A DNA stretch of 64,000 bases from Luteolibacter sp. (GCA_044233125.1 JBIIKO010000008.1:20873-84872); one strand, 5' to 3'. Positions 18,694-49,651 are shown, counted from the stretch's first letter. The notes: generated by a model not told the origin, from the sequence alone. A program made the numbers and translations.

Positions 18694-20559
18694 CTATTTC
18701 ACGGGCACAAGTTTCATTTCCCTCATGGTGAATCCCCGGCCCGTTTTGCAAGTGAGCATGAGGGTGTTTCTTCCTTCCTTGAGCTCCATTTCGACGGGCT
18801 TTGACAGCTCCCACATGCCGAGTGTGTAGGGGAGTTCCACATCGATTTGTGTTCTCCGGTTAAGCCGAATCAGTCCGATTTGATCCGGGGCGACGGTGCA
18901 GACGTCGAGGGTGATCATGTATTTGCCATCTTTTGGAGCCTCGATGTAGTAGGTCAAAAGCTCAGGTTCCGTTCCGAGCCGGGCGTAGTGCATCTGGGTT
19001 CCGGTTTTCTCGAAATTCGCCATGAAGAGAATGCGGCCGGTGCTGGAGCTTGGCTTTGCGCAGGCTGCGGCGGGAACGATGATTGAGCCATCTGCGGCAG
19101 CGACCATCTTCCGATGATCCTCAGGGATCACATAAGCCGCGCCATCGTGGGTCTCCTCGAGTCCCGCCTCGGACTCACCGAGGAGCGTCTTGGCTTCGTC
19201 TGCGGTCATGGCAGCGAGTTTTTTCTCCTCCTCGGATTTTGCCAAGGCGGCATCCGCCACCATCACCCGTTTTTTATAGAATGCCAGAGCATTCCAGAAG
19301 CCACCGCCCTGGCCGTAGGCGATGCGGTCCACATCTTCCTCGCCCAGAGCATCTGCGATCCACTGCGCACGAAGCACTTGCATGAAGGGCTTGGGAAAAA
19401 AGCGTGCTTGGGAGTCGAGATAGAAATCGAGCCCGCCGGGTGAGTTGGACCACCAGGCTCCCAAATTGACCTTCCAGCCTGTGGGCGTCCAGTGGGACAA
19501 AGCGCCGTGGGCGGTCTGGGGATGATTACGGGCTGGGATGCCGAAGGCGCGCAGGGTCAGACGGCCGAACCATGCGCGGGGGCCGCAGGAACCGCCGAGT
19601 GCGAGCGCCTGTTGAGACCGTGTGCCAAGCTCATCATCTGTGCGGATGCTGCTGTAGGGCATGTCGCTTTTCACGAGGCGAACATAGCGCCAATGGGTAT
19701 CGGCGGTGCGGATGTGATCCGGGCGGTAATTACGCATCGCTTTCCGGATCCAGGTAAGATCATTGAGCGCGCGCTCGCCAACCATGATGAAGCGGCAGAG
19801 CCATGGGGTCATGTCCTTGAACGACGGATCGAGTTCGCCATCGAGGTAGGCTTTCTCGTAGTGCTGGTAGCGTTCGACCGGATCGTTGCAGCTCAGAGCG
19901 ATGGCGGTACCCAAAGCGAGGTGTTGAAAAATAGTGCCGACCTCACGGGCGCGTTCGTTCTCTTTCAGGATCGCGGTATAGATCTGCATGGCCTCGCCGT
20001 AGTTGCCATCCTTTGCGCCCTCGGCCACGGTGATTTGCTTCATGAGCGCCTCATCGGCAAACAACTTATCGAGGAGCGCCTCCTGGGCTTTGCCTTGTTG
20101 GGCGAACGCGGCAAGTCCGTGTGGGGTGCCGTGAGTGAGGATGGCGATCCTGACCAACTTACCATCGAGCGCATCACTGCCGAGGAAAGTATCGTGATCC
20201 GCGAGAAGCGCTCTGGAGGACTCCATCATCTTGGATTCCGCCTGTGCCAGTGCTTCCTTATAGTTGGCGACATCTGCAGCCGTGGCGCCTTTCTCGGGAG
20301 CGACGAGTGCATCCAGAGTCGCCCGTGCGTCCAGAAAGGCCTGCTTTTTCTTTTCATCGATCGCAGGCAATGCCGCCACGACCTCCTTGTTGAGGGACGA
20401 GAGCAAAGTCTGATACTTTGTTAGAATTTTTTCGCCCTGCGCCGTGAGCGGGGCGGGAGCCTTCTTTTTTTGCGCTGCCGCAAACGGACAGAGCAAAATC
20501 AGACAGGCTACCATCATGCCCTGAGTGGTGATTTTCATCGTGTGCTTCATGGGTGTCAT
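18694..20559 (-). CDS. Exported transglutaminase-like (Cys-His) protein with C-terminal CBM-like beta-sandwich
   Basis: Signal peptide; GGSCGPRAWFGRLTLRAFGIPAR...AHG (C325/H351); C-terminal APKDGKYMITL...LPYTLGMW...LKEGRNTL. Paralog of 36696-39272. Confidence 0.65.
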   Translation of the reverse strand: MTPMKHTMKITTQGMMVACLILLCPFAAAQKKKAPAPLTAQGEKILTKYQTLLSSLNKEVVAALPAIDEKKKQAFLDARATLDALVAPEKGATAADVANYKEALAQAESKMMESSRALLADHDTFLGSDALDGKLVRIAILTHGTPHGLAAFAQQGKAQEALLDKLFADEALMKQITVAEGAKDGNYGEAMQIYTAILKENERAREVGTIFQHLALGTAIALSCNDPVERYQHYEKAYLDGELDPSFKDMTPWLCRFIMVGERALNDLTWIRKAMRNYRPDHIRTADTHWRYVRLVKSDMPYSSIRTDDELGTRSQQALALGGSCGPRAWFGRLTLRAFGIPARNHPQTAHGALSHWTPTGWKVNLGAWWSNSPGGLDFYLDSQARFFPKPFMQVLRAQWIADALGEEDVDRIAYGQGGGFWNALAFYKKRVMVADAALAKSEEEKKLAAMTADEAKTLLGESEAGLEETHDGAAYVIPEDHRKMVAAADGSIIVPAAACAKPSSSTGRILFMANFEKTGTQMHYARLGTEPELLTYYIEAPKDGKYMITLDVCTVAPDQIGLIRLNRRTQIDVELPYTLGMWELSKPVEMELKEGRNTLMLTCKTGRGFTMREMKLVPVK

Positions 20560-20571
20560 ATTTTTGAATGG

Positions 20572-23361
20572 TCAATCTTTGTCGAGTTTAGGGGCTTCCA
20601 TGGCGAGGCGGACGCGCTTGAGCCTATCGTAATAAACGCCGCCCGCGATGCCCACTTTGAACGCCGCGCCTGACGGAAGCGTGGGGTGAGGTTGAGTTTC
20701 CTGATCCGCCATGGCGCGCGCCGCCTTGGCCTCATCGCCGCGTTTGAGTTGATCGAGGATCATGGCCTTGGTGAGAAGGATTTCCACCACACCATGGCAC
20801 TTGCAGCGCCCGGCGACCATGCGTTGCTTGATCGCATCATCGATGGTGATGAGTGCCGCTTCCCAATCCTTGAGGCCCATTTGTGCCAACGCCCGGCCAT
20901 GGGTGCGATCGGAGTGCCACCAGTTTTCCTTCGCGTTTTTCGTCGTGAAGGCATTGAACTGTTGGACGGCGGTCTCGTAGTCGCCGCGTTCAAGCGACTC
21001 GAAGCCCACGTCACTCTTGAGCTTCTGGAGATTGTTCGCAATCGCCAGCACCATCGGGAAATCAGGACCTTCCGCTTTGAGCGAATAGCGATAGCTCAGG
21101 CCGGAGACGGCCCACGCGAGCGTGCCGTCATTGCGGAAGAGAATGACGTTCGGCATGATATCCGCCGAGAGGATCCCGAGCTTACGGACAAGCGGGTTTT
21201 TCAGACCGCCGGGCACCATGGCCACTTGGTAAGACTTGTCTTCCGGCACGGCCGCATTCGCGAGTTTAGCGTCATCGCTGAGCATGGCGACCACCACATC
21301 CACATCATCGTGATTTTTGAAGGCTTTGGCAAAGGCCTTGACGCGATCCATCATTCCGGCCTGGGTAGCGGCATCGGCGGAAGGTTCGGCAAAAATCACG
21401 CCGAGCATCCGATCCGGCTTTTCCTGCGGGAGCGTCATGGTGCCGCCATTGAGAGATTTCAGCTCGAGACTCAAGCGGGTATTTCGGTCCAGCGGTTCAT
21501 CCAGACCGGAGAGCATCACCCGGAAACCGGCTTTACCCATGCGTTCTTTGAGACCGCCCGGCAGCGCGTAGAAATTGCGATGGCGATGATGGCGGTCTAA
21601 CAGAAATGCGCGGACGGGCCACAAGCCCGGGTCGATAGCATCGCCCAGTGCCAGCAAGCGCTTGCGATAAGTTTCATGAACGCTTCGCGCATTCGCATCA
21701 AGGGCTAGCATGGCGGCGGCAGCCAGAGCGGAAGCGGAAGCCTTTTCGCCGCCGCATTGGGCGATGAAGTTGGCGATCAGGGCTTCCGGATTTTCCTCTC
21801 CCTTGCGCAAGGCCACCTTGACCCGGCAGAAGCGGGACACAACATCCGCACCGGGAGGCAAGGCTGTCATGCCAAGCACGAGTCCGGCTTCGGTGGCGGC
21901 GGCATCCAGATGGGACGCGTCTCCTGTTAGATTCCACAAGCCGATGAGGGCGATGATTCTGCGGTTTCGGAGCTGCCAGCTGTCGGGCGCGTCCGCCTTG
22001 GATTTGAGAGCTGAGGTGGTCAAATCGGCGACCTTGCGGTAGTGCGCCAGTTCCTCCTCACGACTGATCCGGTAGCGGAAAGGCGGCGCGACCTCAGCGG
22101 GGAGGGAGCTGGATGCGGGAGCATCGGCGACGAGAAAATCGCCGATAAAAAGCGAGCGCAATTGCGCGAGGTAGCGGCTGTCATCGATTTGCCAGCTGAA
22201 ATCCGCAATTTTGCGCGGTCCGGGAATTTCCTCCCCTGCCCCTTCGGCGGCGGCAATGCCGAGTGCCGGCGATGGGGATTCGAGTAGCACACGACCTTGG
22301 GCGTTAACGATGAAGGCTTGCGGATCGATGCTGGCGTAGGCTTGATAAGTCGGGTTCTTGCGACCGCCCGGCAGCTGCATGACGGTCCAATCCAAGCCGA
22401 GTTTTTTCAACTTTTCCCGCCCCGCATCCGGAAGCTCATCCACGTTGAAGCTCAGCACTTCCAACCCCCCGGGAGATGCCGCTTGCAACGCCTTCGCCTC
22501 CTTCAGGTGGTCATCGATGCGCGGGGTTTGCTCCGACCAGAAGAAAACCAGATAGGGACGCCCCCAGCGGTCGAGCGGCAGCGAGACTGACGCACCTCCA
22601 GCGATTTGAAAGGTTCCCCGGAACACCGCATCAAAGCGGTCACTGGCGTTATCGGTCCGCCATTGCTGGATGGTCTTGAGATCGCCTGCAGAGATTTCGT
22701 AAATACGCTCCTTGATGCGTGCGACGAGTTCGAGATCGACCAGCTTGGCGGCGATCATCGAGCCGATCATCAGGCCTTTCGATTCGGCAGCCGTGCCGCG
22801 GTATTTTGCGAGTAATTCCTCGAGCACCTTGCATCGTTCCTCAGGTGTGGCTTTTTTCTCACTCATGGTTTTCTCCATGAGGAGCAAATCCGCATCGAGC
22901 CTTAACTCTGCGAATTCGTCTGGAGCCTTGCGCAGTTCCTCCGCCGTGGCGAAGAGATCGTTGCGATTTTCCAGCGTGTTCTCAAGGGACAATAGGCGCC
23001 GCTGACCGTCTTGAATGAGACCCAGCAGAGCGAAACGGCCGCCCCCCTCCGGTGTCGTGGCGAGCAGGGCTTGCGCCTTCCGGATGACGCTCTTGCATAC
23101 GCGCCGCGCCGCAGCAGCAGAGTCCGCCTTCACAGCTTCCGACAACTCCTGCCGCAGGGCGGCCACTCCGGATTCCGGAGTGCTAGCCGCAGCTTCCTGC
23201 GCTGCACTGAAACTCAAGGAGCCGAGCATGCAACAAAGCAGAAGGCCAAGCAAGCGATGCCCGAATGCGTCGGACCGTTGCGGAGATAGGTTCCTGCTAT
23301 TTTTCAGGCAGTCTGTTAGAGCAGTGGATTTTTTGAACGTATGATGAGACAGGGGTTTCAT
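20572..23361 (-). CDS. Exported protein with two CxxC-less thioredoxin-like domains and C-terminal TPRs
   Basis: Signal/TM LLGLLLCCMLGSLSFSAA. TlpA-like segments YLVFFWS...LEVLSFNVD...AFIVNAQGRV and LGVIFA...PNVILFRNDG; TPR-like RALAQMGLKDWEAA. Start set at ATG 23361, 4 nt after the upstream stop. Confidence 0.65.
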   Translation of the reverse strand: MKPLSHHTFKKSTALTDCLKNSRNLSPQRSDAFGHRLLGLLLCCMLGSLSFSAAQEAAASTPESGVAALRQELSEAVKADSAAAARRVCKSVIRKAQALLATTPEGGGRFALLGLIQDGQRRLLSLENTLENRNDLFATAEELRKAPDEFAELRLDADLLLMEKTMSEKKATPEERCKVLEELLAKYRGTAAESKGLMIGSMIAAKLVDLELVARIKERIYEISAGDLKTIQQWRTDNASDRFDAVFRGTFQIAGGASVSLPLDRWGRPYLVFFWSEQTPRIDDHLKEAKALQAASPGGLEVLSFNVDELPDAGREKLKKLGLDWTVMQLPGGRKNPTYQAYASIDPQAFIVNAQGRVLLESPSPALGIAAAEGAGEEIPGPRKIADFSWQIDDSRYLAQLRSLFIGDFLVADAPASSSLPAEVAPPFRYRISREEELAHYRKVADLTTSALKSKADAPDSWQLRNRRIIALIGLWNLTGDASHLDAAATEAGLVLGMTALPPGADVVSRFCRVKVALRKGEENPEALIANFIAQCGGEKASASALAAAAMLALDANARSVHETYRKRLLALGDAIDPGLWPVRAFLLDRHHRHRNFYALPGGLKERMGKAGFRVMLSGLDEPLDRNTRLSLELKSLNGGTMTLPQEKPDRMLGVIFAEPSADAATQAGMMDRVKAFAKAFKNHDDVDVVVAMLSDDAKLANAAVPEDKSYQVAMVPGGLKNPLVRKLGILSADIMPNVILFRNDGTLAWAVSGLSYRYSLKAEGPDFPMVLAIANNLQKLKSDVGFESLERGDYETAVQQFNAFTTKNAKENWWHSDRTHGRALAQMGLKDWEAALITIDDAIKQRMVAGRCKCHGVVEILLTKAMILDQLKRGDEAKAARAMADQETQPHPTLPSGAAFKVGIAGGVYYDRLKRVRLAMEAPKLDKD

Positions 23362-23365
23362 GTTC

Positions 23366-24526
23366 CTACTTTTGGTAAATGGGAATGTAGCGGTAGGGTG
23401 CTGCAAGCATGATGATCGCCATCGGGGTTTCGTGGCCGACAATCTTGGTGGCCGATGACGCTGGGGCGGATTGCTCTTCTATGGGAAGCCCTGCAGCCTT
23501 GGTAGGCGTTTTATCCGACACTTTTCCTATCCACGAACCGTTTCCAGACTGGCGGCTGACCAATGCATCGCGAATCTGCGGATACCACTTCGCATAGCGC
23601 TCGTCGCCCGACTGCACCATCGCTTGGAGGGCATAGTAGTGGCAGTAGTAGTAATAACCGCAGCCTTGGAAGATGGCGGGTGCGAGTCCCTCAAGATTTC
23701 GCAGCGCGCCCTCGACCATTTCGGACTCACGAGCTCCGGCAAGCTGCGCCGCATACGCGCCGGCGGCGGTGGAGCCAATGGTATCTGATCCGGCTTGTCC
23801 CGAGCCGAGCGGCACATAGACGAAACCACCAGTCTTCGGGTTGGCTACCAGCTCCAGATAGGAAATGACCTTGGCGATCGTCTCGTTGGGAACCGCGATG
23901 CCCGCCTGACGTGCGGAGGCCAGGGCAACGAACACCGTGCCGGTCGCGGACGTATCATTGCCTTTACTCGGAGTGGGTTGATAGCGCCAACCGCCGGCAG
24001 CGGTTTGCGAGCGCAGAATAACATCGACCGCCGCCTCAATAGCCTTTTGGAACGCGTCATCATCCTCCTTGGATCCGGTCATCCCCCAGAGTTCGGTCAA
24101 GGCAAGGGTCGCCATGCCGTGCTCGTACATCGAGGATCCCAAGTATCCATTCGGCGCCTCTTTCGCTTGATTGAGAAGCCAATCCTTAGCGCGTGCCAGT
24201 GCCTTGCCATTGGGTCCGGAGCCGGGGAATTCGGCGCGGGACATGAATGCCATCAGCGCCAGCGAGGTCATCGCCGTGGATCGTTCACCGAGTTCACCGG
24301 AAGCCCATGAACCATCGTCGCGCTGATTGGCCAGAAGGTATTTCAAGCCCCTGTCAATCGCCTGTGCGGCTTTGACGGTGAGTTCCGGCGCATCGTTCTG
24401 TTGGGCGAGACCCGTGGTGGGAATGGCGGATAAGAGCGTGAGTGCCAGCACACCGATGTGGCTACTACGCAAGGCGAGGCGAAATCCCCAGCCATTCCAT
24501 CTGAAACCTGATTTTTGCATTCTCAT
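23366..24526 (-). CDS. Exported prenyltransferase/squalene-oxidase-repeat (alpha/alpha toroid) protein
   Basis: QW-type repeats (NQRDDGSW, SQTAAGGW, RQSGNGSW), MYEHG and NDTSAT; signal peptide; ATGA overlap with the upstream gene. Confidence 0.85.
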   Translation of the reverse strand: MRMQKSGFRWNGWGFRLALRSSHIGVLALTLLSAIPTTGLAQQNDAPELTVKAAQAIDRGLKYLLANQRDDGSWASGELGERSTAMTSLALMAFMSRAEFPGSGPNGKALARAKDWLLNQAKEAPNGYLGSSMYEHGMATLALTELWGMTGSKEDDDAFQKAIEAAVDVILRSQTAAGGWRYQPTPSKGNDTSATGTVFVALASARQAGIAVPNETIAKVISYLELVANPKTGGFVYVPLGSGQAGSDTIGSTAAGAYAAQLAGARESEMVEGALRNLEGLAPAIFQGCGYYYYCHYYALQAMVQSGDERYAKWYPQIRDALVSRQSGNGSWIGKVSDKTPTKAAGLPIEEQSAPASSATKIVGHETPMAIIMLAAPYRYIPIYQK

Positions 24527-27500
24527 TTTGTCAGCCTTTCGAAATAGTTTTTCAAAGTATCGCGATGTTCGAGGGGTAATTCGCGCGCGAAATTCTCGTT
24601 GAGTGCGGCGCGCTGGCGTTTGCCGAGCACCTCCCAGTCCAGCTTGCCGGCCGGAGGGCGTTCGCCGCTGACCACGCCGGGCATCATCAGATCGAACTGA
24701 TCCTGCATTTCGACAAAGATCTCGGATTCCGGAGGCGGTGGTGGGGTAGCACCTTTACCTGGCTCGGCAAGGAATTTGATTGCGTATTCGATGATGAAGT
24801 GACGCAGACTTGTCGCCGCTTTCTCCTGGCCGGACACCGTGCGCGCGCGATCTCCCGCTACAGCACCTGCCGCGGCTTCCGCGAAGGATTGCTTCGCCGC
24901 CACCAGCTTGAGGTGCAGGTTGGCGGGCGGCAATGGCTCTGTGGGGGGCTCTTCCCCCTTCGCCAATATCACCGGTGGATTCAGTTGCTCCTGCGCGATG
25001 ACGATGAACGGATCAAGGGATAACTCGAACGCAAGCAAGCCGGACTCGGTGGCTTTGAGCGCCGCTCCATCCGCCGCGCTATGTTCGCGGATGAATCCTT
25101 TATGCTTCGCCGCCACAGCCAGCACCTGCCTCATCAAAAGAGGTTCCGGTTTCGGTTTTTCCTCTTGAGCACCGAGAATCAGACCGACTTGTTTCACGCA
25201 ATTGGCCAGTGTCGCCGCATCGGCTTTCAGTGAAGTTTCCGCCGATTGCATCCGCGCAGCGGCTCCGGCGATGTCGTTCTTGGCGAGCAAACTTTCAGCC
25301 TCCGCCATGGATGTTAGGCTGGTCGAATTCATTTCGAGTCCCGTGATGCGCTGGATCAACGCACTGTAAGTCTGGAGGCCGGTCTTGATCTCGGCCTGCT
25401 CGCGGGCAAGCGCTGCGGCATCGGCACCGACCGCCAGAGCTTTGACGCAGAGTCTGCGCTGGGCCTCGGCGAGACGCACCCCTTCATGACTGGCCTCGTA
25501 AGAAGCTTCCATAATTTCAAGAACGTAGCGGTGCTGCGCGACGATATCCAAGATATTGCTGCGAAGTTTCTCCATCGTCTCGACGATGTATTCGATGGCG
25601 TCAATCGCCTCGACCCGGTCTTTCGCCAGCATGGCATCCGCAGCGGCCTCCATGTCCTCCTTCGCGAACATCATAACGGTACTCGAACCGACCGTCTTTC
25701 CGACGACAGCCAGAAGCTCGAGAGTCGCGTTCACCGCATGGATCAGGTTTTTCTGGGAAACGGCGAAGCTGGGCAGCTCGTCATCTTTCGCCTTGCGCAC
25801 CCGCTCGAGCAGATCGCTTTGTTCCGCGATGATTTCCGCAATGAAAGGGCTCGGGAACTCCGCGCTTTCCACCGCGAGAAGGACTCCACCGAAGCGACTC
25901 AAGCGGCCGGCATGATCCGCGAGCAAGGCATTGGCCATTTTGACGTTTTCCAGTGCGCCTTCTTGAAACGGAATGGCTTCTTCGGGTTTTTTGGCATCAA
26001 GCAGGGTGGCGGCAGTGCGCAGGGATTGCACGATTTCACCAAGGCAGGCCGGAAGCGCCCGTGGTTGGTCCGAAGAGTCACCGTCGTTTTGTACCTGCGC
26101 GTTCATCTCGTCCAAATGTTGCTGGATTGTATCCGCCAGTGACGCTTGCCGCTCGGCAAGCGAGTTCGCCTGGTTTTTCTTCGCAGCCGCATCTTCCGTC
26201 TCCTCCAAAAGGGCGAGCAGGCCATCGGAGTACCGACCAAACCGCTCAAACATTTCTTCCGCTGTGAATTTAAACCGACTGATCCGAAGAACCTGGGTCA
26301 TGGAAGCGATGCGCGCTTTCGAGATGCTGGCGAGCTCCTTGAAGGATTTCTCGACCAGCTCCTGATCCTTGCGGGCGGCATCACGCTCGCCCTTGGCGAT
26401 GGCCGCGGCGGCGCGCTTCATCGCATCGTCCGCTGTGGCTAACAGCTCCGCCACCGGAGGAGGTAGCGGGTCATGGTCTTCAAAAAGCCGTGGTCGCCGC
26501 GCGGGAATCTGCGGCATGAGCAGCATCTGGAGTTTTCTTTGCAAAGCCTCCTGCTCGGCAGCCAACGCAGCACCGCTGTCCCGGTAGGCCTTCTCGTCCA
26601 ACGCGTCCATGGCAAGGCGGATTTTCACCTGTTCAGCCACAAGTGTTTCATAAAGTGCCTTGGCCGCGACCAGCGCATCCCGCTCGCCACCCACCCGCAG
26701 GCGGGATTCGGCATGAAGAAGGGCCTGGATGACTTCGGCCTGCCGTTTTGCCGCATCGCCGGTGGAGTTGCTACGAATCAGCTCCGACGCCTGTTGCAGA
26801 CGCGGCTCCATGCCGTCACGGATCATTTTCTTGACCACGCGAGACAGAGTGAAAGCTGTTAGAGCCTCCTCCACGGTGCTTTCACGATCCTTGGGGCTCG
26901 CCGCGAACAGGCGCTTCAACCATACCGCCAACTGATCCTGCTCGGTTGCCAAGACCGACGCGTTTTCCTGTTGCACGATCGTTCGCAAGCGCAAAGCGGC
27001 TTGGGTTGAGGCGGCCGCGCGGTATTCTCGAGCCATCACATCCGCCGCCTCGTTGTAGCCGAGTTGCAGCACGAGCAATCCGATTTCGCGAGACGAATCA
27101 TCCAGTGCGGCAACCGCTTTTGACTTTGCAGAAGCTACCACAGGGGCGGCTTTCCCGACTTCGCCGCCCAGCGTCCGGAGTGCCGGCGCGGTAGCGGCAA
27201 GGTTTTGTTCAGCGATTCGCAACACCTCCTTGCGCAGCTGGGCCAGTGCATCGATGCCTGGGTAATCGGTGATCTGGTTTGCCGCTAGATCGTCGATGAG
27301 TTCCTGCATGCCTATCGAGAGTTTGCTCATCCGCTCACGCATCAGATCTTGCCGCACGGCCTCGAGCTGGCAGTTCTGCATGAAAACCGGATCGGAGGGA
27401 TCCAGACGGAGAATATCCTCATGAACTTTGCGTTGCTCGCGGTAGATCGCTTTGAGCTCCGAGAGCTGGCGGAGCCTCTGTTTTTCCAGCTGCGCAAGGT

Positions 27501-34516: not shown

Positions 34517-35533
34517 TTATTTCTGATAGATTTTTTCATCAGAAGGGATTTCCTTCAGGAGCCTTTCAATCAAGGTGTCCGAGGTCATACCATCGGAACG
34601 TGCCGCAAAGCTCGGAATAATCCTGTGCCGCAGGATCGGCAGCGCCAAAGCCTGGATATCCTCGATCGCCACGTGATGCCTGCCCCTCAGCGCGGCTCTC
34701 GCCTTGCCCGCCGTGATCAAATTGAGCGAAGCCCTGGGACCGGCGCCCCAGGCCATCAGTTTCTTGACGAAATCAGGTGAGTCCGCCTCGTTGGGACGCG
34801 TAGCCCGGACGAGTGAGGCAGCATATTCAAACACATGCTCGGCGACAGGAATGCGGCGTACGACATGTTGGAATTCCAGGATGGCGGCCTTGTCGATGAC
34901 TTGCTTCACATCCGCCTCGGTGTCACTTGTGATACTGCGCATGATGGACAGTTCCTCGTTACGGCTGGGATATTTCACCATGATATTGAAGAGGAAGCGG
35001 TCAAGCTGCGCCTCTGGCAGAGGATAGGTGCCTTCCTGCTCGATCGGGTTTTGCGTGGCCAAAACGAAGAACGGCGCGTCGAGCTTGTATTCCTCACCAC
35101 CGGAGGAAACCCGCTTCTCCTGCATCGCTTCAAGCAATGCGGCTTGGGTCTTTGGCGGAGTCCGGTTGATTTCGTCTGCCAGCAAGAGATTGGTGAAGAC
35201 CGGGCCCTTCTGGAACTTGAAGCTGCGACGATGCGTCTCCGGATCTTCCTGCAACAACTCGGTGCCGGTGATGTCCGAGGGCATCAGATCCGGTGTGAAC
35301 TGGATGCGCTTGAAGCCAAGTGACATGGTTTTCGCCAGCTCGCTGACCAGCAGCGTCTTAGCAAGACCGGGAACCCCGACGAGCAGGCAGTGGCCACGGG
35401 CAAAGATTGCGATCATCATCTCGTCGATGACTTCATCCATTCCGACGATCACCTTGCGAAGTTCTGTCACGATCGCATCCCTTGTCTTGCCGAGGTTTTC
35501 GACCGCGGCTGCGTTATCTGTCTGATTGCTCAT
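34517..35533 (-). CDS. moxR: MoxR-family AAA+ ATPase
   Basis: [67 protein letters not shown]. Confidence 0.96.
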
Positions 35534-39272: not shown

Positions 39273-39614
39273 GGTTGAATGAAATGGATGATTTTTTTCA
39301 ATTAGTTTCTGAATTTACGTGCGCTTCGCTCGCCGGAAGGAGTAAAAAAAAGACTAGCTCATAACAGACGGGAAATACGCTGCACGAAGGATGGAGAGCC
39401 CGCGCAACATTTATTACGTCGAGGTATCGGCTCGCAGTAGCGGTTGAGGCAAGAAACAATTTTTTATAATGCCGTCGTTTTTTAATACAGGTATGAGTTT
39501 ACTAACCACATGAAGATAAAGGCTCGGGATGAGTGGCGAACCCTTCGAAGCGGATCTGATCACGCGATTAACAAGAGTGATGCGTGGATTAAGGTTCACG
39601 TGGGGAAGCGAGGA

Positions 39615-42600
39615 CTATTTTTCAATTTTAACCTTCGCGGGCGGGGCGTCTTCATTACGGAATCCATACATGGGCAGGAGGCGATAGTAGACTTCCAGGC
39701 TAAGGGTCGCAAAAGCGGTGGAGATGACCCGTCCGCCAGGAACGATGTGCTGTCCGGTGGGATTCCAACTCCCGCTTTCTGCTCCGTCCTTCCTTTGGGT
39801 GAGTGGCAATACCTCTTTTAGCTTCTCGTTCCAGGCAAGCCACACCGGTCCCTGGTGCTGATAGAGAGCAAGGGTGGCGTAATACACATGGTAAAGGTCC
39901 GGAGCCTTGGGATTGATCGAGTGCATTTTGAGCAAGTCCGCGCTCTCCTGCATCATCGGCTCCGTCGGCGGAACAAGGTCCAACTGGCGGCAGAACATAC
40001 CGGTGGCCACCATCGCAGGATTGCTTCTACTAGGACCATCGTAGCCGTAGAGCCCACCATGTTTCCCTCCGCCGGCATAGGTGAACCACTTGCCCGCAAG
40101 TTCAAAAGCCGACTGCGGAACTTGGATGTCCGCCATTTTGGCGCTATGCAGCGCCATGTATTGCCAGCCGGTCACGGAGGTATCACTATCCTTGCTGGGC
40201 ACTCCGTTCTTGGCGGGTTCATAACGCCACCCGCCCTTGCTCGGGCTTTGTGAGGCGAGGATCAGGGCAATCGCCTTCTCGGCGGGTGCCTTGAGCTTGG
40301 GATCTTTGGTCGCGCCGTAGGCCTCGCACAACGCGATGGTCGCGATGCCATGGCAATACATTCTGCCTGTCGCCTTCGCGCCACCGGATAAATCCCCATC
40401 CTCCTTCTGTTGCGCCACCAACCAGTCGAGCGCCTTCCTGATGTTCGCTTGGTATTTTCCATCAGCGGTATGGCTCAAGCCCCAGCCATAGAAACATAGG
40501 AGAGCCGAGCCGACGCCAGCGGTGTCGTAATCGTCCTTAGCTCCGTGCTTACGGGTATCCCAACGCCCGTCGGCCTCTTGGTTGCGAGCCAACCAATCGA
40601 GGGCTGCGCCGATTCCCTTCTCACTTGCATCCGAGCCGCCGAGCGCTTCGATAGTCTCAAGAGAAGGTCTACCACGCTGTTTCTGGACGCTTTTGGTCAG
40701 GGCCTGCGGGTCGATTTCATGTTTCGGCATCTCCAACTTACCGGGCAGGAGCGGATCGGTGGTCGAGTCCGACCCACTGATATTGAGCAGCGTTGTTACC
40801 CGAGTGCCCACACCGTCCATCTTAGGAGGAGCACCCTGCGCCTCAAGCCCGGAGTGAGCGATGATTTGGGAACCACCGGTATCGGTTGTCGCGGCACTCG
40901 AGGAGCCAAGGGAAATCTCCTTATTTTGAGTCGATTTTTGCACTGCTTTCTCCGCGACATCGAGAGTCTTCTTGGCTTGTTCCGAGCCGACCTTGGGCAC
41001 CGATTTTGTCGGGCGGAAGAGATCCTTCGAGGAATCAGCCGGCTCGGAAGCCACGGCTGGCTCAGTAGAGGTCAACTCCGGAAGCGTGGGAAGCTCAGGC
41101 TCTAGCAGCTGACTTTCCGGCAAGCTGCTCGCCAGCTCACGTTGGTCGGAGGGCACGGGGACGGACTCCGAGGTGGGAGACTGATTCTCCTTCGACGCAC
41201 GCACATCCTGGATCATGGATTCCTTTGCCGTGCTGGTCACAATCGGTGGAGCATCGGAAGGCTGGACAGGTTTGAAATCCGGGATGACGAAGTCACTGAC
41301 AATTTTATCGGTAACGACAGCCACCTTGGTGTCACTCAATTTCGCCTCTTCCGGCGTGCTTTCCAAGGCCAGTTCTTCTTGGGCGAGTGCTTCGATACTG
41401 ATCGCGATATCCGCGGCTTGGGGTTCTCCGCCTGAGTCGAGATTCTGCTTGATCTGCCAAATCATCATCAGCAGCAGGATCAGCAAATGCACAGCGGCCG
41501 ATCCAGCGAGGCATTTGTGATAGAGGCTGGTGAGATCCTGCCAGCGTTCCAGCAGATAGATCAGCGCGATCAACGCAGCTAGTGCGAGTAACAAGCGCCA
41601 ACCGATCTGATTGAGCAACTCACCAAACTGCATCCAGCGCGAAAGATTCGTGTAACCAAAAACCTCGCGGGTGGTCGTCCGGTATAATCGATAACCCTCC
41701 GCCGGATTTTCCGAACCTTCCAGTGCGGCAGCGGCTTTCGGATCGGCGCTGAAAAGCAGATCAAAACCGTCCATCCGCACCGCCGGATCCGTGACATCAC
41801 CCTTGTCAATGTAGAGGTCCACACGCTCTGGTGGCAACGACTTACCGCCGACCATCCGGCTAAAATAAATGCCGAAGCCAGTGTTCTTGTCTCGGTCTCG
41901 ATCCGAAGCGAGGAACACGTGATCGCCGCGTCTTGACAACGCTGCCCGCAAATCACTTGCCGCAGTATTCAGCTCATTGACCGGCTCGGCTGCGGAAAAC
42001 GCGGGGATCTCTGGCAGTCCGATCTTTGCTTTCGGACTGGGCGCGGGGGGCGCGCTAGGTTGCGTGGCAATCCGGTTAGCAAGATAGATGTCATCGGCTC
42101 CTTGAGCGACCCGTTTGGATGAAAAATACAACTGCGAGTCATCCGCTGATAGAGTAGGACCAGCTTCATCCGCTGAGGAGTTTACCGAGGCACCCAGCGA
42201 CTCCACACCCGTCCAATCTTTGCCATCCCAGCGCGCAACATACAGATCGTAGCCACCGAGTCCGCCTTTGCGGTCGGAGGCAAAATACAGGTAATTTCCG
42301 TCGCTCGATAAGCCTGGACCGCGCTCGTTGGCGGCGGTATTGATCGATTGAATCGCCTCCGGGCGGCTCCACAACCTGCCATCCCAATTCGACTGATAGA
42401 GATCGGCATTAGCTTGGCTCTTATCCCAGCGGACCAAGATCATGCGGGTGCCATCGGCGGAAAACGCAGCCTCATACTGGCCGGCGGGTCCATTGACCGG
42501 ATCGACCCGCTTTGCATCTACGGTATCGCTTTTATCCTGAAAATAGTTGAGCTTCGGATCCTCCCACAAGACCATTCGCGCCTTGTCTTCTTGAACTTCG

Positions 42601-42809
42601 ACCCGCATTCCCTCGCCGTCACTGAAATAGGCCCAGACATCATCGCGCAGATTGCCCCAGAGCACCGATGCGATCACTGCGGCGACCACGAAAGCAAGCA
42701 CCGGCAGCGACCAGCGCTTCAGATAAACCAGCAGACGGCTCCGGCCTTCTGGTGGAATTTTCGTCGGATTTTTCCTATCTTGATGATCTTTCATGGGTCT
42801 GTGACTCAT
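39615..42809 (-). CDS. Inner-membrane protein: TM, PD40 propeller, TM, TM (SxxxH), low-complexity linker, alpha/alpha toroid
   Basis: PD40 repeats (PGLSSDGNYLYFASDR, PTLSADDSQLYFSSKR), hydrophobic helices at about aa 33-52, 404-421 and 433-452, QW repeats and DSDTSVTGW. Confidence 0.82.
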   Translation of the reverse strand: MSHRPMKDHQDRKNPTKIPPEGRSRLLVYLKRWSLPVLAFVVAAVIASVLWGNLRDDVWAYFSDGEGMRVEVQEDKARMVLWEDPKLNYFQDKSDTVDAKRVDPVNGPAGQYEAAFSADGTRMILVRWDKSQANADLYQSNWDGRLWSRPEAIQSINTAANERGPGLSSDGNYLYFASDRKGGLGGYDLYVARWDGKDWTGVESLGASVNSSADEAGPTLSADDSQLYFSSKRVAQGADDIYLANRIATQPSAPPAPSPKAKIGLPEIPAFSAAEPVNELNTAASDLRAALSRRGDHVFLASDRDRDKNTGFGIYFSRMVGGKSLPPERVDLYIDKGDVTDPAVRMDGFDLLFSADPKAAAALEGSENPAEGYRLYRTTTREVFGYTNLSRWMQFGELLNQIGWRLLLALAALIALIYLLERWQDLTSLYHKCLAGSAAVHLLILLLMMIWQIKQNLDSGGEPQAADIAISIEALAQEELALESTPEEAKLSDTKVAVVTDKIVSDFVIPDFKPVQPSDAPPIVTSTAKESMIQDVRASKENQSPTSESVPVPSDQRELASSLPESQLLEPELPTLPELTSTEPAVASEPADSSKDLFRPTKSVPKVGSEQAKKTLDVAEKAVQKSTQNKEISLGSSSAATTDTGGSQIIAHSGLEAQGAPPKMDGVGTRVTTLLNISGSDSTTDPLLPGKLEMPKHEIDPQALTKSVQKQRGRPSLETIEALGGSDASEKGIGAALDWLARNQEADGRWDTRKHGAKDDYDTAGVGSALLCFYGWGLSHTADGKYQANIRKALDWLVAQQKEDGDLSGGAKATGRMYCHGIATIALCEAYGATKDPKLKAPAEKAIALILASQSPSKGGWRYEPAKNGVPSKDSDTSVTGWQYMALHSAKMADIQVPQSAFELAGKWFTYAGGGKHGGLYGYDGPSRSNPAMVATGMFCRQLDLVPPTEPMMQESADLLKMHSINPKAPDLYHVYYATLALYQHQGPVWLAWNEKLKEVLPLTQRKDGAESGSWNPTGQHIVPGGRVISTAFATLSLEVYYRLLPMYGFRNEDAPPAKVKIEK

Positions 42810-45172: not shown

Positions 45173-45204
45173 GGGTATGGCTTGAGTTCAATGAGGAATT
45201 TGCC

Positions 45205-45624
45205 TCAGGATTCGGTTTTAAGGGCGATATTGGCTTTCGGGACACCTACGTGACGGCATATCGACATGATGTTTGCCAGATAGAGATGCTTGGCATCCTG
45301 ATCACAACGGATCAGCACTTTGATATCGGGTTTTTTGGCCACCTCCTCGGTCATCCATTCCGAGATCTTTTCCTCCGTCACCTGTTTGCCTAATACGACA
45401 TAAGATCCATCCTTGCGGATGTTGATGTTGATCAATTTACTGGCGGATTGTGTCAGTGATTGGTTTTTTGAGTCCACCGGCAGATTCACGCTGTGATCGA
45501 TCTCCTCTTCCTTGAAGGTGGTGGTGACGAGGAAGAAAATGAGCAGCAGGAAGATCAAATCCATCATGCTGGTCATGCTGATCAGCTCCTCGCTATTCTG
45601 GCGGGAATTGCGACGGCAGTTCAT
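45205..45624 (-). CDS. exbD: ExbD/TolR-family protein
   Basis: TM SMMDLIFLLLIFFLV with the conserved Asp; periplasmic VLIRCDQDA. Confidence 0.92.
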   Translation of the reverse strand: MNCRRNSRQNSEELISMTSMMDLIFLLLIFFLVTTTFKEEEIDHSVNLPVDSKNQSLTQSASKLININIRKDGSYVVLGKQVTEEKISEWMTEEVAKKPDIKVLIRCDQDAKHLYLANIMSICRHVGVPKANIALKTES

Positions 45625-46391
45625 GGCTTGGAGGAAGGAGATGTTAGCCGAGCGTGTTTGACGATGAACTCGGTGCCGACCTCGTCGATGTGATCGATCG
45701 CTCTGTCAGCCCGGGTCGAGAGCCACTGGAAAAGCAGCAATGCGGGAATGGCAATGGTCAGTCCGGCGGCGGTACTAACGAGCGCCTCGTAGATACCCGT
45801 CGCCAAATCAGAGGTCTTGGCCGCACCGCCGCTTTCGGCAGTAGCTTGGAACGAATCGATCATACCGTAAATGGTCCCGAGCAAACCCAGTAGTGGGCTG
45901 ACACTGGCGATGATCGAAAGTGGACGCAGGCTGCGGGTAATTTTCTCAGCCTCACGTGCTCCTGCATCCTCAATCGCCTTGCTAACCGCCTGGTATCCCT
46001 CATTGCGCCATTGAATACCTGCCTTCAACACGTGGCCGGCAGCCCCGCCCGATTGATCACAAAATTCCTCGGCGGCCTGGCCTGTGGGATCACGATCCCA
46101 AGCCTCACCAAGACCCTGCAGGAAATTGTCCGGCAACAACTTCTCTTTGCCCAAGGAAATGAAACGTTCAATGCCCAGCGCCAGCGCGATGATCGAGCCG
46201 ATCGCAAGAGGAATCATCACCGGTCCGCCTTTTTTGATGAGGCTGAACATGGTTTCCTTGGCTACTCCGGCGGCTTCTCCCGCCTCAGCCGCATGGGCGA
46301 TGGCGGTGAGCGCCATCAGTAGCGAGGCACTGAGGAAAAGGGTCATGCGCCGCCGCCGGCCGTCTTTCATCGTCGTATTTCGAATGTCCAT
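45621..46391 (-). CDS. exbB: MotA/TolQ/ExbB proton channel protein
   Basis: SPLLGLLGTIYGMIDSF and GIYEALVSTAAGLTIAIPA; coupled to exbD. Confidence 0.93.
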   Translation of the reverse strand: MDIRNTTMKDGRRRRMTLFLSASLLMALTAIAHAAEAGEAAGVAKETMFSLIKKGGPVMIPLAIGSIIALALGIERFISLGKEKLLPDNFLQGLGEAWDRDPTGQAAEEFCDQSGGAAGHVLKAGIQWRNEGYQAVSKAIEDAGAREAEKITRSLRPLSIIASVSPLLGLLGTIYGMIDSFQATAESGGAAKTSDLATGIYEALVSTAAGLTIAIPALLLFQWLSTRADRAIDHIDEVGTEFIVKHARLTSPSSKP

Positions 46392-46420
46392 GTCTGTTTT
46401 TTGTTAGGTGTGTGATTGAT

Positions 46421-49400
46421 TTATGAGTCGCGCATTTTATCGAGCAGCTGCCGGGCGATGATCGCCGCCTTCTCCTTGCTGAATTTACGGATCACTTCCT
46501 TGAAGCGTTCCTCCGCCTCTTCGCGTTTGCCTTGGGCGAGCAGAACGCGGCCGATTTCCAGCACGGCCTTTGCCTGCCAGTCCGGGTATTTACTGTAATT
46601 GATCTCCATGTTGACAAACTCAGCGATGGCCTTGTCATAAACCTGCATGTTGAAATGGCACTCGCCGGTCTGGAACCTTGCGCGGACGGTCCAGAGATCC
46701 ACGCTAGCCGCCGTGAGGAGTTTGGCGTATTCGGGGATGGCAGCTTTGGGATTGCCACCCATTTCATGCGCGAATCCGAGACCGAACTGCGCGTTGCGCG
46801 TCCATTTGCTATCCTTGAAGGTGGTGAGAAATTTCTTATACGTCTCTTGGGCTGCCTTGTGTTCCCCGGTCAGTGATTGGGTTTCACCGAGACGCATCAG
46901 GATCGACTCCGCGAGCTCCGGTGGCGTACCGGCGATTGCGGCTGCCGCCGCGAAATGGTCGCGTGCCGTGGCAGACTCGCCGAGCTGTAGCCGTGACTCC
47001 CCGGCCTGGAACAGGATCGACGCGCGTAGCTTGGACTGTGGGTAATCAGCTAGCAGTTTTTCTAACTGGACCGCCGCCGTCGCGTGATCGCCCTTGTTGA
47101 AATGGGCGCTGGCGAGCTGATAGCGAATGTCTTCGCGCAACTTCGCATCCTCGACCTTCGTGAGAGTTTCCGTCAGGTCGGCGATGACCTTGTCCTGAGA
47201 GCCGGCGTCGAGATTCAAATTGGCGAGCTCGCTGCGCACCTTAAGCACAAGCTCGCTTTTGGGGTAAGCAGCGATGAGTTTTTCGAAGAGTTCGGCGGCC
47301 TCCTTCTTGCGCTCGAGGGATTTCTCGCACCAGGCCCACTCGTAGAGTGATTTATCGGCAAATTCCGAGTTCGGATATTTTCCGACGAGTTCCTTGAAGA
47401 AGCCTGATGCCTCTTTCCACTTTTCCAGACGGGCGAACGAGAGCCCGGCGTAGTAAAGCAGCCGTTCACGCTTCTCGTGCTCAGGGAACTGCTTGAGGAT
47501 CTCGGGAAACAGCTTCGCGGACTCCTCGAACTTCTCCGCCTTGACCAGGCTGACCCCTTGCTGCAGGCGTGCATCGGCGGCTAGCTCGTGGGTTTTCGGA
47601 ACCTCGGAGAAGCGTTGCGCCGCCATCTCGTGCTTGCCCTCGCTGGCTTCCACCCAGGCTAGGTAGTAGGTGGCCTTGGGAACTTGGCCCGTCGCGTTTT
47701 GATTAAAAATCGGATCGTTCTTCCCAGCCTCCTTGAAGAACCGCTCCAGTGAATTCCGTGCGAGCTTGAGATTTCCCTCCTCGAAGGCCAAGCGCCCTTG
47801 TTCCGCCAGAGCAATCGGCATTTGAGGTGTGGACCAGGGATAGACATCAGTGATCGTGCTGAGGTGCTGGAACGCCTTTTGCGCATTCCCGCCTTGCACA
47901 TGGGCGACCGCCAGCTGCATCAGTGCGGTATCGACATTGGGCGTGGGTTGACCCTTGAGCTTCGGGTGCTTTTTAGAGGCGGCAACAAGGTCGTAGGTCG
48001 CCACGAAAGCCTCCAGCGGCGGAATAGCCTCCGCCCACTTCTCCTGCCGGAACAGACAATCCCCGACCACGAAAGAAAGTTGGGCGAAGAGTGTTCCCTC
48101 TGGTTTTTTAGCGAGCAATGGGGCGGCGCTGGCGAGAGCTTTTTCCCACTCGCCCTTACCATGGAAAATCTGCGCGATGCGAAACGCCGCCACCATCTGT
48201 TTGGCGTGCTCCTTATCCTTGGCGGTGAAATCGGCATAAGCGGCCGCAGCCTCGTCCGCGCGATTGAGCAAAAACAGGTTTTCCGCTTTCATGAAGCGCA
48301 TGTCACCCCCGGACTCGTGATCGGGAAAACGCTGCACGAACATGTCATTGTAGCGCATGCTGTTGGTGTAATCGGCGAGCTTATGCAGGCAGATGGAATG
48401 CAGCATGAGCACCTCCGCCATCTGACCGAATGACTTGCTACTTTCGATTCGCAACAGGATATCACCCGCCTTTTTCCAGTCTGGCTCCTTGCGGTTCATC
48501 AAGGCGTTGGCGAGGTCAAAGTTCAGGTCTTCAGCAACCGTTGTCTTTTGAAATTTTGCAGAAGCGGGCTCGAGAATCTCGGCTGAGCGATCATAGTTGT
48601 TTTGCCGGGAATGGACACGCGCCCACCAAAGGTTAGCTCTCGCTGCCACATCATCCTCCCCAGCCGCCAGTGCCTGCAAGTCTTTGTCCGCTGCTTTGTA
48701 GTCTTTGAGCTCGATCCTGCAGCGGTTAAGAATCAGCTGTGCTTCCTGAAGCTGGCGCCCGACCGCGGGTTTTTCCGGATCTGGCTTCGCCTCTTTGAGA
48801 TACAACGTGAGATCCGCCATCGCCGCCTCGTGCTTGCCTTGCAAAAACCGCGCCATGGCCAGACGGTAGCGGCACTCAGTAGCCTCCGCTCCCTGCATGC
48901 CTGACAGTGCCGCGGCATACGCCTGCTCGGCCTTGTCAAACTCCTTGAGCATGTTGTGACTCTCGCCCAAAAGATAGGCGGCGCGAACTTGCCATGCCGG
49001 ATCGGCCTTCAGCTCCGGAATTTTTGCTAACGAGACTCCGGCTTCCGCGTATTTCTTAAGTTGGAACTGCGCAAAGCCTTGCTGATAGACACCGCGCGCC
49101 GCCTGATTCGGATCAGGCTTCGCGGCGAGCAGCTTGGGTGCCCATGCCAGCACCTCGTCCCATTGCGATTTGCCAAACGAAATATCACATACCGCCACCA
49201 GCGCTGCCGTTTTCATGGCCGGGTCTTTCAGTTTGTCGAGCTCCGACACGAACAGGCTCTTTGCCTCATCCTGGCGGTTGGTGAACATCAGGCAGCGCCC
49301 CTGCAACAACGCGATGCGCTCGCGGCTGATCTCCGGATCCAGCTTCGGCTTCGCCAGCAGGGCGGCGAAGTGAGGCATGGCTTTGTCATACTGCTTGAGC

Positions 49401-49651
49401 GCATACTGACTCAAACCCGCGCCCTGGTGCGCCAAGTCCGCCTTCGGATGCGCGGCGTTTTTCTTCAGGAAACTTTCATACTGCCCGATCGCGACCGGGT
49501 AGAGCTTGCGGTTATAGGCGGCGTTTGCGACAAAGTATTCCTCGAGCACCGGATCTTTCTCGTCCTGTGCCAAGACAGAAGAGGAGACGCAAAGCGAGAG
49601 ATAAAGCGAGAGATAAAGAAAAATCACTCTGAGGACGGAAAACCGGAACAT
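46421..49651 (-). CDS. Large exported TPR-repeat protein (CpoB/BamD-like repeats)
   Basis: Signal peptide MFRFSVLRVIF...SVLAQ (ATG 49651); continuous TPR motifs (e.g. ELVGKYPNSEFADKSLYEWAW, ARFQTGECHF). Confidence 0.88.
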   Translation of the reverse strand: MFRFSVLRVIFLYLSLYLSLCVSSSVLAQDEKDPVLEEYFVANAAYNRKLYPVAIGQYESFLKKNAAHPKADLAHQGAGLSQYALKQYDKAMPHFAALLAKPKLDPEISRERIALLQGRCLMFTNRQDEAKSLFVSELDKLKDPAMKTAALVAVCDISFGKSQWDEVLAWAPKLLAAKPDPNQAARGVYQQGFAQFQLKKYAEAGVSLAKIPELKADPAWQVRAAYLLGESHNMLKEFDKAEQAYAAALSGMQGAEATECRYRLAMARFLQGKHEAAMADLTLYLKEAKPDPEKPAVGRQLQEAQLILNRCRIELKDYKAADKDLQALAAGEDDVAARANLWWARVHSRQNNYDRSAEILEPASAKFQKTTVAEDLNFDLANALMNRKEPDWKKAGDILLRIESSKSFGQMAEVLMLHSICLHKLADYTNSMRYNDMFVQRFPDHESGGDMRFMKAENLFLLNRADEAAAAYADFTAKDKEHAKQMVAAFRIAQIFHGKGEWEKALASAAPLLAKKPEGTLFAQLSFVVGDCLFRQEKWAEAIPPLEAFVATYDLVAASKKHPKLKGQPTPNVDTALMQLAVAHVQGGNAQKAFQHLSTITDVYPWSTPQMPIALAEQGRLAFEEGNLKLARNSLERFFKEAGKNDPIFNQNATGQVPKATYYLAWVEASEGKHEMAAQRFSEVPKTHELAADARLQQGVSLVKAEKFEESAKLFPEILKQFPEHEKRERLLYYAGLSFARLEKWKEASGFFKELVGKYPNSEFADKSLYEWAWCEKSLERKKEAAELFEKLIAAYPKSELVLKVRSELANLNLDAGSQDKVIADLTETLTKVEDAKLREDIRYQLASAHFNKGDHATAAVQLEKLLADYPQSKLRASILFQAGESRLQLGESATARDHFAAAAAIAGTPPELAESILMRLGETQSLTGEHKAAQETYKKFLTTFKDSKWTRNAQFGLGFAHEMGGNPKAAIPEYAKLLTAASVDLWTVRARFQTGECHFNMQVYDKAIAEFVNMEINYSKYPDWQAKAVLEIGRVLLAQGKREEAEERFKEVIRKFSKEKAAIIARQLLDKMRDS

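Follow-up and report, generated by a model that had tools for sequence, protein, structure and literature searches.

The window analysed here is a 64,000-nucleotide stretch of DNA from Luteolibacter sp. (GCA_044233125.1, JBIIKO010000008.1:20873-84872), and its minus-strand gene run at 18694-49651 consists of two separately conserved envelope modules, cassette A (39615-49651, five genes), which holds ExbB/ExbD-type motor genes together with a putative force transducer, and cassette B (18694-35533, eight genes), which holds a MoxR-type ATPase together with von Willebrand factor A (vWA) proteins. The run is best explained as a lineage-specific juxtaposition of these two envelope cassettes, each of which is conserved and would be functional alone, with no obligate single complex, and the probability of this reading is put at about 0.65. 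A previous reading made from the sequence only had proposed an uncharacterised envelope machinery with a motor driven by the proton motive force (PMF) and a MoxR/vWA module, and to this extent it is supported. It had also joined both parts in one complex using ATP and PMF. As a general system, such an obligate machine is not supported because A and B each occur alone widely: the five genes of A are colinear in 49 loci, with no B gene in the 42 of them that have enough downstream sequence, and B was found alone as a paralogue, in congeners and in metagenomes. Rare linkage of the two blocks elsewhere had been named beforehand as the finding that would count against a single machine, and in the gene-neighbourhood survey the blocks were indeed rarely linked.

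Distribution of Cassette A

A scan for the transducer gene of cassette A, with one genome per species, gave 510 confirmed stretches, 74 loci were kept, and all 15 proteins of the run were compared by tblastn against the kept and further loci. All five genes of cassette A are colinear in 49 loci from Verrucomicrobiota and Planctomycetota, and none of the 10 other genes of the run is present in these loci, generic toroid similarity aside. In 42 of the cassette A loci, the sequence continues for 5 kb or more beyond the transducer gene on its downstream side, and MoxR or other cassette B genes were found in 0 of these 42; three further A loci (L096-L098) are also without genes of the MoxR block. 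Clustering of the flanking open reading frames (ORFs) found no conserved further neighbour of cassette A; the families that recur at its flanks include sulfatases, DUF1501 and PSCyt proteins, none of which is consistently linked to it.

Cassette A is patchy within the phylum, being present in roughly 8 of 401 sampled genomes (alignment A1), a rough figure for which two candidates were scored per genome. A full-length PD40/toroid homologue was found in none of 40 relatives. All 24 other species of the genus are without a full-length transducer homologue, and in 11 of them no PD40 protein at all was found. Since these genus mates are without a transducer homologue, cassette A is dispensable in close relatives, and it is treated here as an accessory system of the Tol/Ton kind, not as a universal replacement. 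Meanwhile, seven pairs of a tetratricopeptide repeat (TPR) giant gene and a transducer gene were observed without exbB and exbD (L006, L038, L067, L071, L076, L078 and L079), and for six of the seven, the source genome apparently contains a full cassette A as well. This is as expected if one motor serves several transducers, and it suggests that the extra transducers share one motor in trans. A literature search for ExbD together with toroids returned nothing relevant, and cassette A is absent from the searchable literature.

Components of Cassette A

The TPR giant is a protein of about 1075 aa once the signal peptide is removed, with a TIGR02795 (YbgF/CpoB) match of 196 bits over eight stretches; its orthologues are 40-80% identical and form the first gene of the cassette in 49 loci. 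The best NCBIfam match of ExbB is TolQ (88 bits, far under the cut-off of 221) and that of ExbD is TolR (49 bits, far under the cut-off of 127), and ExbD retains the transmembrane (TM) aspartate, D22. The cassette ExbB and ExbD are an orthologue group of their own, 48-94% identical across loci; the cassette orthologues of ExbB are 54-88% identical, and identity to the other MotA/ExbB-family genes of this genome found in the comparison is 27-32%. PD40/toroid-1 was found in nearly all cassette A loci and shares the TM-propeller-TM scaffold of the transducer, PD40/toroid-2, with its toroid lying among the blades. Both proteins match PD40 repeats and a squalene-cyclase-like toroid in Pfam and NCBIfam, and their toroids are 43% identical to each other. 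The propeller/toroid of PD40/toroid-1 is predicted to be fixed to the inner membrane at both ends.

The Putative Force Transducer

PD40/toroid-2 is a putative TonB/TolA-like force transducer with a new head, a reading by analogy that is drawn because the protein combines an S-x3-H helix with a disordered linker and a toroid head and is encoded next to ExbB and ExbD genes. The order of its parts is TM1, a TolB-like PD40 propeller, TM2, a 10-residue cytoplasmic loop, TM3, a box just after the membrane, the linker and the toroid. TM3 reads KCLAGS437AAVH441LL, in which neither S437 nor H441 varies among 22 homologues (48-81% identity, alignment A1), and the Leu/Ser half of the SHLS motif is not conserved in the homologues. 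Among the 15 proteins of the run, S-x3-H within a hydrophobic helix is found in the transducer only, and it is absent from every cassette B protein. The locus had been described as having no TonB or TolA, and this stands for the canonical TonB_C and TolA domains, as neither TonB_C nor TolA-III is found in the transducer by Pfam or NCBIfam, the head being an alpha/alpha toroid instead; it fails in that the 39615-42809 protein has an S-x3-H anchor helix. The post-TM box, GGEPQ..IAISI[DE]ALAQEELALES, is conserved in the transducer homologues and is a candidate motor box.

The linker spans aa 459-714, about 250 residues, and is disordered in the AlphaFold2 (AF2) model, with a predicted local distance difference test score (pLDDT) below 50; Ser makes up 13% of it, Pro, Ala and Glu 9% each, and Thr 8%. 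The toroid, aa ~715-1050, is modelled with pLDDT mostly of 80-93. In Foldseek searches, the nearest solved match of the propeller is TolB (2w8b, E 1.9e-7), and those of the toroid are a single-domain squalene-hopene-cyclase-like protein (8pak), AprG, GH76 and the complement thioester-containing domain (TED). A search with the transducer returned 427 homologues at E <= 0.001, and the best 120 of the 427 have 40-93% identity. Of these 120, most are full-length, and the others are longer variants whose match covers about half of the query; each is either without a name or "hypothetical", and where the source is named it belongs to Verrucomicrobiota or Planctomycetota. A 109-residue probe covering the TM hairpin, the S-x3-H motif and the post-TM box found 48 cluster representatives only, among 1.84 billion proteins, and nearly all of them have 1000-2300 aa.

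Some transducer variants (P0113, P0112 and P0072) reach 1400-1850 aa through an expanded linker and keep the S-x3-H helix and the toroid. The linkers of the long variants extend to 700-900 residues with S437/H441 retained, and that of P0113 contains five tandem repeats of about 102 residues. It was also considered whether the PD40/toroid proteins are the "membrane-coat-like" proteins (beta-propeller plus alpha-solenoid) of the Planctomycetes-Verrucomicrobia-Chlamydiae (PVC) bacteria; this candidate was dropped because PD40, TolB, prenyl and TM features all go without mention in the coat-protein paper.

Cassette B and Its Occurrence without Cassette A

Cassette B is a PVC version of the Bat/RL3499-type MoxR-DUF58-BatA-vWA operon. 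A second full eight-gene B cassette lies outside the window in the same genome, on contig C14 (C14:47734-64561), in the order moxR, DUF58, BatA, vWA/GATase (glutamine amidotransferase), 1521-aa membrane protein, toroid, TGase-like/CBM (transglutaminase-like protein with a carbohydrate-binding module) and Trx/TPR (thioredoxin-like/TPR-like), the last two being swapped relative to the window. A divergent promoter region marks the start of this copy, and its surroundings hold neither ExbBD nor PD40 genes. The window MoxR is 83% identical to its C14 paralogue and the TGase-like/CBM protein is 48% identical to its own. Compared with the vWA/GATase protein of relatives, the C14 copy is 70-74% identical and the window copy 56-59%; as judged from such sequence comparison, the B of relatives is orthologous to the copy on C14 and not to that of the window, which is an extra, divergent paralogue.

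Several congeners carry B while being without a full-length PD40/toroid homologue. In addition, 66 metagenome loci found with BatA hold, in this order, moxR, DUF58, BatA, vWA/GATase, the big membrane protein, the toroid and Trx/TPR, with TGase/CBM in some; cassette A was found in none of the 66, of which about 9 are informative (at least 7 kb upstream). Homologues of the vWA/GATase-like protein are present in 88 of the 401 genomes of the phylum, in agreement with the previous statement that moxR-vWA-toroid clusters recur. The later genes of the cassette are kept as well: the 1507-aa membrane protein is syntenic in the paralogue and in relatives (33-37% identity), the free toroid gene follows it in relatives and metagenome loci, and homologues of the Trx/TPR protein occur in the C14 copy and in metagenome loci.

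The BatA protein matches PF07584 and TIGR02226 at residues 1-79 and VWA_2 at 95-200, with the metal ion-dependent adhesion site (MIDAS) D100-A-S-C-S, and DxSxS MIDAS motifs were found in the DUF58, BatA and vWA/GATase-like proteins. The vWA/GATase-like protein has weak Pfam matches only, with GATase1_like at E 0.006. MoxR-vWA-beta-propeller ternary conflict systems, in which a dedicated bpMoxR (PF20030) is combined with vWA and propeller partners, were considered as well: PF20030 matches the MoxR protein with 48 bits, beneath a much stronger AAA_3 match, and the only propellers of the run sit in the separable cassette A. Meanwhile, the family with the TGase-like motif and CBM, some members of which also carry a formylglycine-generating enzyme (FGE) domain, has at least six paralogues beyond the two window genes (contigs C5, C7, C8, C14 and C15). 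SASA esterases number eight or more in the genome, and at C5:172001-175280 a SASA gene adjoins a member of the TGase-like family. This family looks like a secreted, multi-copy group acting on carbohydrates.

Locus Layout and Domain Labels

The features of the run are collected in Table 1. Between 18694 and 49762 there are 15 long ORFs, all on the minus strand, with five 4-nt overlaps, gaps of 12-67 bp and one larger gap of 342 bp (39273-39614); two longer apparent ORF overlaps depend on the choice of start codon, and the GC content is level along the whole run. The ORF of the TPR giant extends to 49762, and its likely start is at 49651, which is Met38 and is followed by a signal peptide. The layout given in the sequence-only reading (15 co-oriented, tightly spaced genes with one large gap) is thus confirmed, and its start of the TPR gene at 49651 is the most likely one, Met38 yielding a proper signal peptide.

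Most of the domain labels proposed at that time are matched by Pfam or NCBIfam models, and two of them, "transglutaminase-like" and "DUF4175-like", have no model match. For the former, only a GICGRRAFF...GIP...H motif can be seen by eye, with no Pfam match at E up to 5 (up to 1 for all paralogues); a profile search against the PDB returned CBM modules only and no transglutaminase sequence match, and the AF2 model has pLDDT <50 over the putative TGase core. For the latter, no Pfam or NCBIfam match was found even at E 5. The CBM label of the TGase-like family was well chosen: the PDB profile search matched CBM35 and CBM6 modules, giving a CBM6/35-like C-terminus, and CBM_6 was found in the paralogues.

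Table 1. Features of the gene run in the window, in order of transcription (coordinates counted from the first letter of the window).
Feature	Coordinates	Strand	Remarks
TPR giant, cassette A gene 1	46421..49651	-	periplasmic; concatenated CpoB/YbgF-like and BamD-like TPR units
ExbB/TolQ-type proton-channel subunit, cassette A gene 2	45621..46391	-	PF01618 (MotA_ExbB) E 1.4e-28
ExbD/TolR-type subunit, cassette A gene 3	45205..45624	-	PF02472 E 3.2e-26; 4-nt overlap with exbB
PD40/toroid-1, cassette A gene 4, 788 aa	42806..45172	-	TM, PD40 blades, inserted alpha/alpha toroid, PD40 blades, TM
PD40/toroid-2, cassette A gene 5, 1064 aa, putative force transducer	39615..42809	-	
S437-A-A-V-H441 codons, TonB/TolA-type S-x3-H motif in TM3	41487..41501	-	
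A-B spacer	39273..39614	-	between cassette A and the TGase-like/FGE gene
FGE junction gene, 858 aa, secreted	36696..39272	-	PF03781 E 6.8e-28; N-terminal TGase-like (motif only) module, CBM-like end
SASA-family carbohydrate esterase	35601..36671	-	PF03629 E 1.2e-17; signal peptide
MoxR-type AAA+ ATPase, cassette B gene 1	34517..35533	-	AAA_3 210 bits and AAA_lid_2; Walker A GVPGLAKT
DUF58 protein, vWA-like, cassette B gene 2	33523..34452	-	PF01882 E 6.5e-42, 144 bits; DASAS MIDAS
BatA-vWA, cassette B gene 3	31388..33526	-	BatA double-TM anchor, vWA (DASCS), CARDB, ThuA/GATase1-like region, C-terminal TM
vWA/GATase-like protein, cassette B gene 4	29013..31391	-	two N-terminal TMs, vWA-like (DVSGS), CARDB-like, GATase1-like
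1507-aa membrane protein, cassette B gene 5	24523..29046	-	three N-terminal TMs; no family model match
Free periplasmic alpha/alpha toroid, cassette B gene 6	23366..24526	-	signal peptide
Trx-like/TPR-like protein, cassette B gene 7	20572..23442	-	weak: AhpC-TSA E 7e-5 (under cut-off), YbgF-type TPR E 3e-4
TGase-like (motif only)/CBM, secreted, cassette B gene 8	18694..20559	-	CBM6/35-like C-terminal sandwich

The Junction between the Cassettes

Cassettes A and B lie side by side within the window clade (the window, L001/L002, L093 and L095) and in L094 and L099, and a contig with 93-96% identical proteins (P0001, P0121) is most likely A-B adjacent too. In L099, the SASA gene is absent and the FGE gene stands directly before moxR, while L100 has cassette A and the FGE gene without MoxR genes, followed by unrelated genes. 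Paralogues of the FGE gene are found elsewhere in the genome. The transducers of L094 and L099 are 60-62% identical to that of the window and, in the tree and in nucleotide comparisons, group with Chthoniobacter-like cassettes without B; the FGE gene of these two loci is 85-87% identical to that of the window, and the MoxR fragment of L099 is 97.6% identical.

Several observations, most of them at this junction, weigh against the reading of two independent cassettes. A and B are adjacent and co-oriented in three sub-lineages of A (the window clade, L094 and L099), and repeated or maintained adjacency of this kind can signal a functional link. In each of the 8 contexts in which orthologues of the FGE gene (75-99% identical) were seen, the transducer gene is the immediate 5' neighbour, and the orthologue group was seen nowhere but beside A (8/8). 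The identities of transducer and FGE gene to those of the window are discordant, at 62%/87% in L099, 78%/99% in L095 and 77%/75% in L093. The A-B spacers of relatives measure 38-87 bp, and because they are so short, the two cassettes are probably one transcription unit in this clade and its relatives. In the phylum sample, seven of the seven A-carrying genomes have a B-type gene as well, located on other contigs; this co-occurrence is judged uninformative, since in those families B is also common where A is missing.

The discordant gene histories across the junction are the ground for proposing recombination. When L095 is compared with window 35000-49958, a nucleotide mosaic is seen, with 93% identity in the 5' part of the TPR gene, 85% in the middle and 97% in moxR, which at the sequence level indicates recent recombination between related populations. 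The preserved junction may reflect selection for adjacency, or it may be a by-product of homologous exchange between genomes already sharing the arrangement. That L094 is an assembly chimera was rejected as the main explanation, being unlikely: its GC content at third codon positions (GC3) is uniform, and L099, an independent contig from another metagenome, has the same junction type. The 342-bp gap of the window is due to an AT-rich insert of about 260 bp (39350-39610), which is ~99% identical in L095 and shared with it only, being absent from L001, L093 and L094; the genome has one copy of the insert. The spacer at 39273-39614 matches no Rfam family, and neither a sigma-70 promoter nor a coding-strand terminator consensus was found in it.

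Proposed Mechanism and Rival Explanations

Under the preferred reading of two juxtaposed cassettes, cassette A would be a PMF system of the Ton/Tol kind, in which, by family membership, an ExbB/ExbD-type stator acts as the motor. TM3 of the 1064-aa protein would dock on this stator via S-x3-H, by analogy with S16/H20 of TonB and S18/H22 of TolA, the disordered Ser/Pro/Ala/Glu/Thr-rich linker of about 250 residues would span the periplasm, and the toroid head may bind a glycan or a protein partner of the outer envelope. The membrane-pinned TolB-like propellers and the CpoB-like TPR scaffold would complete the system. For cassette B, family knowledge suggests that a cytoplasmic MoxR AAA+ hexamer, together with DUF58, remodels vWA proteins of the inner membrane that have their MIDAS domains on the periplasmic side. 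A and B would have separate energy sources and be joined in this clade via the TGase-like/FGE gene, with or without the SASA gene.

A rather unlikely alternative is a lineage-restricted single system, in which A and the window B are co-transcribed and the MoxR/vWA module might, for example, assemble or reset a periplasmic scaffold of vWA, toroid and TGase-like/FGE proteins for the PMF-driven toroid arm. It would account for the junction being conserved in the window, L001/L002, L093 and L095 and recurring with an other-lineage A in L094 and L099, for the 38-87-bp spacers of relatives and for the discordant histories on both sides of a preserved junction, and it is also favoured by the constant place of the FGE gene 3' of the transducer gene (8/8 contexts) and by the uniform GC3 of L094 with the independent L099, which speak against a chimera. 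However, at least 42 informative loci of two to three phyla have A without B, the genome itself, its congeners and metagenomes have B without A, L100 passes from A and the FGE gene to unrelated genes, and no B protein has an S-x3-H helix; moreover, homologous recombination among genomes sharing the arrangement could alone preserve the adjacency. A wider form of the same idea is doubtful: in some Verrucomicrobiota, the toroid-headed transducer and a dedicated extra MoxR/vWA copy would be one dual-energy operon kept through recombination, the ATP module building or resetting the scaffold that the PMF arm pulls, and TM(S-x3-H)-linker-toroid would be a third transducer class after the TonB_C/TolA-III and vWA heads.

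The other alternatives concern the role of cassette A. That it is a functional replacement of Tol-Pal, serving outer-membrane tethering and division constriction in PVC bacteria without TolB and Pal, is suggested by the CpoB-type repeats of the TPR giant, by TolQ and TolR as best NCBIfam matches of the motor genes and by TolB as best solved match of the propeller. The genome is also without TolB_N (PF04052) and has no PD40 proteins apart from the two in cassette A, it has a single TonB_C protein elsewhere, and its two OmpA-domain genes, on contigs C8 and C15, are unlinked to any motor and away from the locus. A replacement is nevertheless quite improbable, as a full-length transducer homologue is missing from 24/24 other species of the genus and PD40 proteins from 11/24, the cassette is patchy in the phylum (~8/401 sampled genomes), and in none of the loci is a Pal-like OmpA lipoprotein found in or near it. 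An energised, TonB-like system for glycan uptake or processing, with the toroid binding a carbohydrate or a carbohydrate-handling outer-membrane protein, is unlikely as well. Among the fold neighbours of the toroid are (alpha/alpha)6 barrels that bind or act on sugars (AprG with GlcNAc/GalNAc, GH76), sulfatases and 3-keto-disaccharide hydrolases are frequent neighbours, and the adjoining genes of this clade carry CBM6/35 and SASA esterase domains; but these genomes contain very many members of the neighbouring families, none of which shows a consistent linkage, the cassette contains no TonB-dependent receptor or other outer-membrane partner, and the fold likeness is generic for alpha/alpha barrels, extending to terpene cyclases and complement TED.

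Flanking Genes and Significance

Directly upstream of the TPR giant there are two very large minus-strand ORFs, 50054-58138 (2694 aa) and 58408-63969 (more than 1853 aa). Both have a C-terminal hydrophobic anchor, and neither is conserved beside cassette A in other loci.

Ton and Tol are the known routes by which energy of the inner membrane is carried to the outer envelope in diderm bacteria, and the envelope biology of Planctomycetes and Verrucomicrobia is still debated. Cassette A is a conserved PVC-wide variant in which an alpha/alpha toroid head is combined with membrane-pinned TolB-like propellers, and it gives a concrete handle on the envelope energetics of these two groups. MoxR/vWA modules are not known to have been assigned a function in 25 years of work on Bat operons. 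Splitting the run into two cassettes avoids a misleading annotation as a "dual-energy machine". The fusion of A and B with discordant histories is the sole feature specific to this window, and the small clade with fused A-B is the place where any cooperation between the MoxR/vWA module and the PMF motor could be tested. The first non-TonB head, a vWA domain, was predicted only in 2025 (PMC12204202).

Comparison with Known Systems

It has been reported that motor-driven transducers with vWA heads occur in PVC bacteria, Bacteroidetes and Proteobacteria, and that in PVC bacteria they lie beside TPR-tolQ-tolR genes (Williams-Jones et al. 2025, Mol Biol Evol, PMC12204202); neither PD40 nor toroids are mentioned there. 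These transducers and that of cassette A are alike in having an SHLS-type Ser/His TM helix, a disordered linker and a head other than TonB_C, and both are encoded downstream of TPR and tolQ/tolR-like motor genes in PVC bacteria and have no assigned function. Cassette A differs in that the head is an alpha/alpha toroid and the anchor is the third TM, placed after a TM-PD40 propeller-TM module; in addition, it has one ExbD/TolR gene in place of a heterologous pair, and a second PD40/toroid membrane protein. Unlike the vWA-headed transducers, BatA and the vWA/GATase-like protein of cassette B have no S-x3-H anchor helix.

With TonB and TolA, the cassette A transducer shares the S-x3-H near the cytoplasmic end of the anchor helix, the adjoining genes of the ExbB/ExbD family, a long periplasmic spacer of low complexity and a conserved stretch that directly follows the helix. 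It differs from them in lacking TonB_C and TolA-III, in its extra N-terminal propeller and three TMs, and in having no linked TonB-dependent receptor. The only TonB_C protein of the genome, at C7:241821-242513, lies beside two ExbB genes and, in contrast to canonical TonB, is without a histidine in its predicted anchor helix. Similarly, Tol-Pal and cassette A both combine a TolQ/R-like motor, a TolA-like arm, a TolB-like PD40 propeller and a CpoB-type TPR protein, but in cassette A the propellers are flanked by TM helices, there is no TolB N-terminal domain and no Pal, and the TPR protein has about 1075 aa.

As far as can be taken from the account in PMC5700661 (citing Tang 1999, Vanderlinde 2011 and Stewart 2012), mutants of the Bat operons of Bacteroides and spirochaetes and of the RL3499-RL3502 operon of Rhizobium show aerotolerance or envelope defects. 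These operons and cassette B share the MoxR AAA+ protein, DUF58 and BatA with its double TM and MIDAS vWA, in the same order. General Pfam and NCBIfam scans of the B proteins, with no aimed test, turned up no families of the BatB, BatC, BatD or BatE type; in place of BatB-E, cassette B has the vWA/GATase1-like, 1507-aa membrane, toroid, Trx/TPR and TGase-like/CBM genes. This genome also differs from the Bat arrangement in carrying two copies of B, the divergent window copy being preceded by the FGE and SASA genes.

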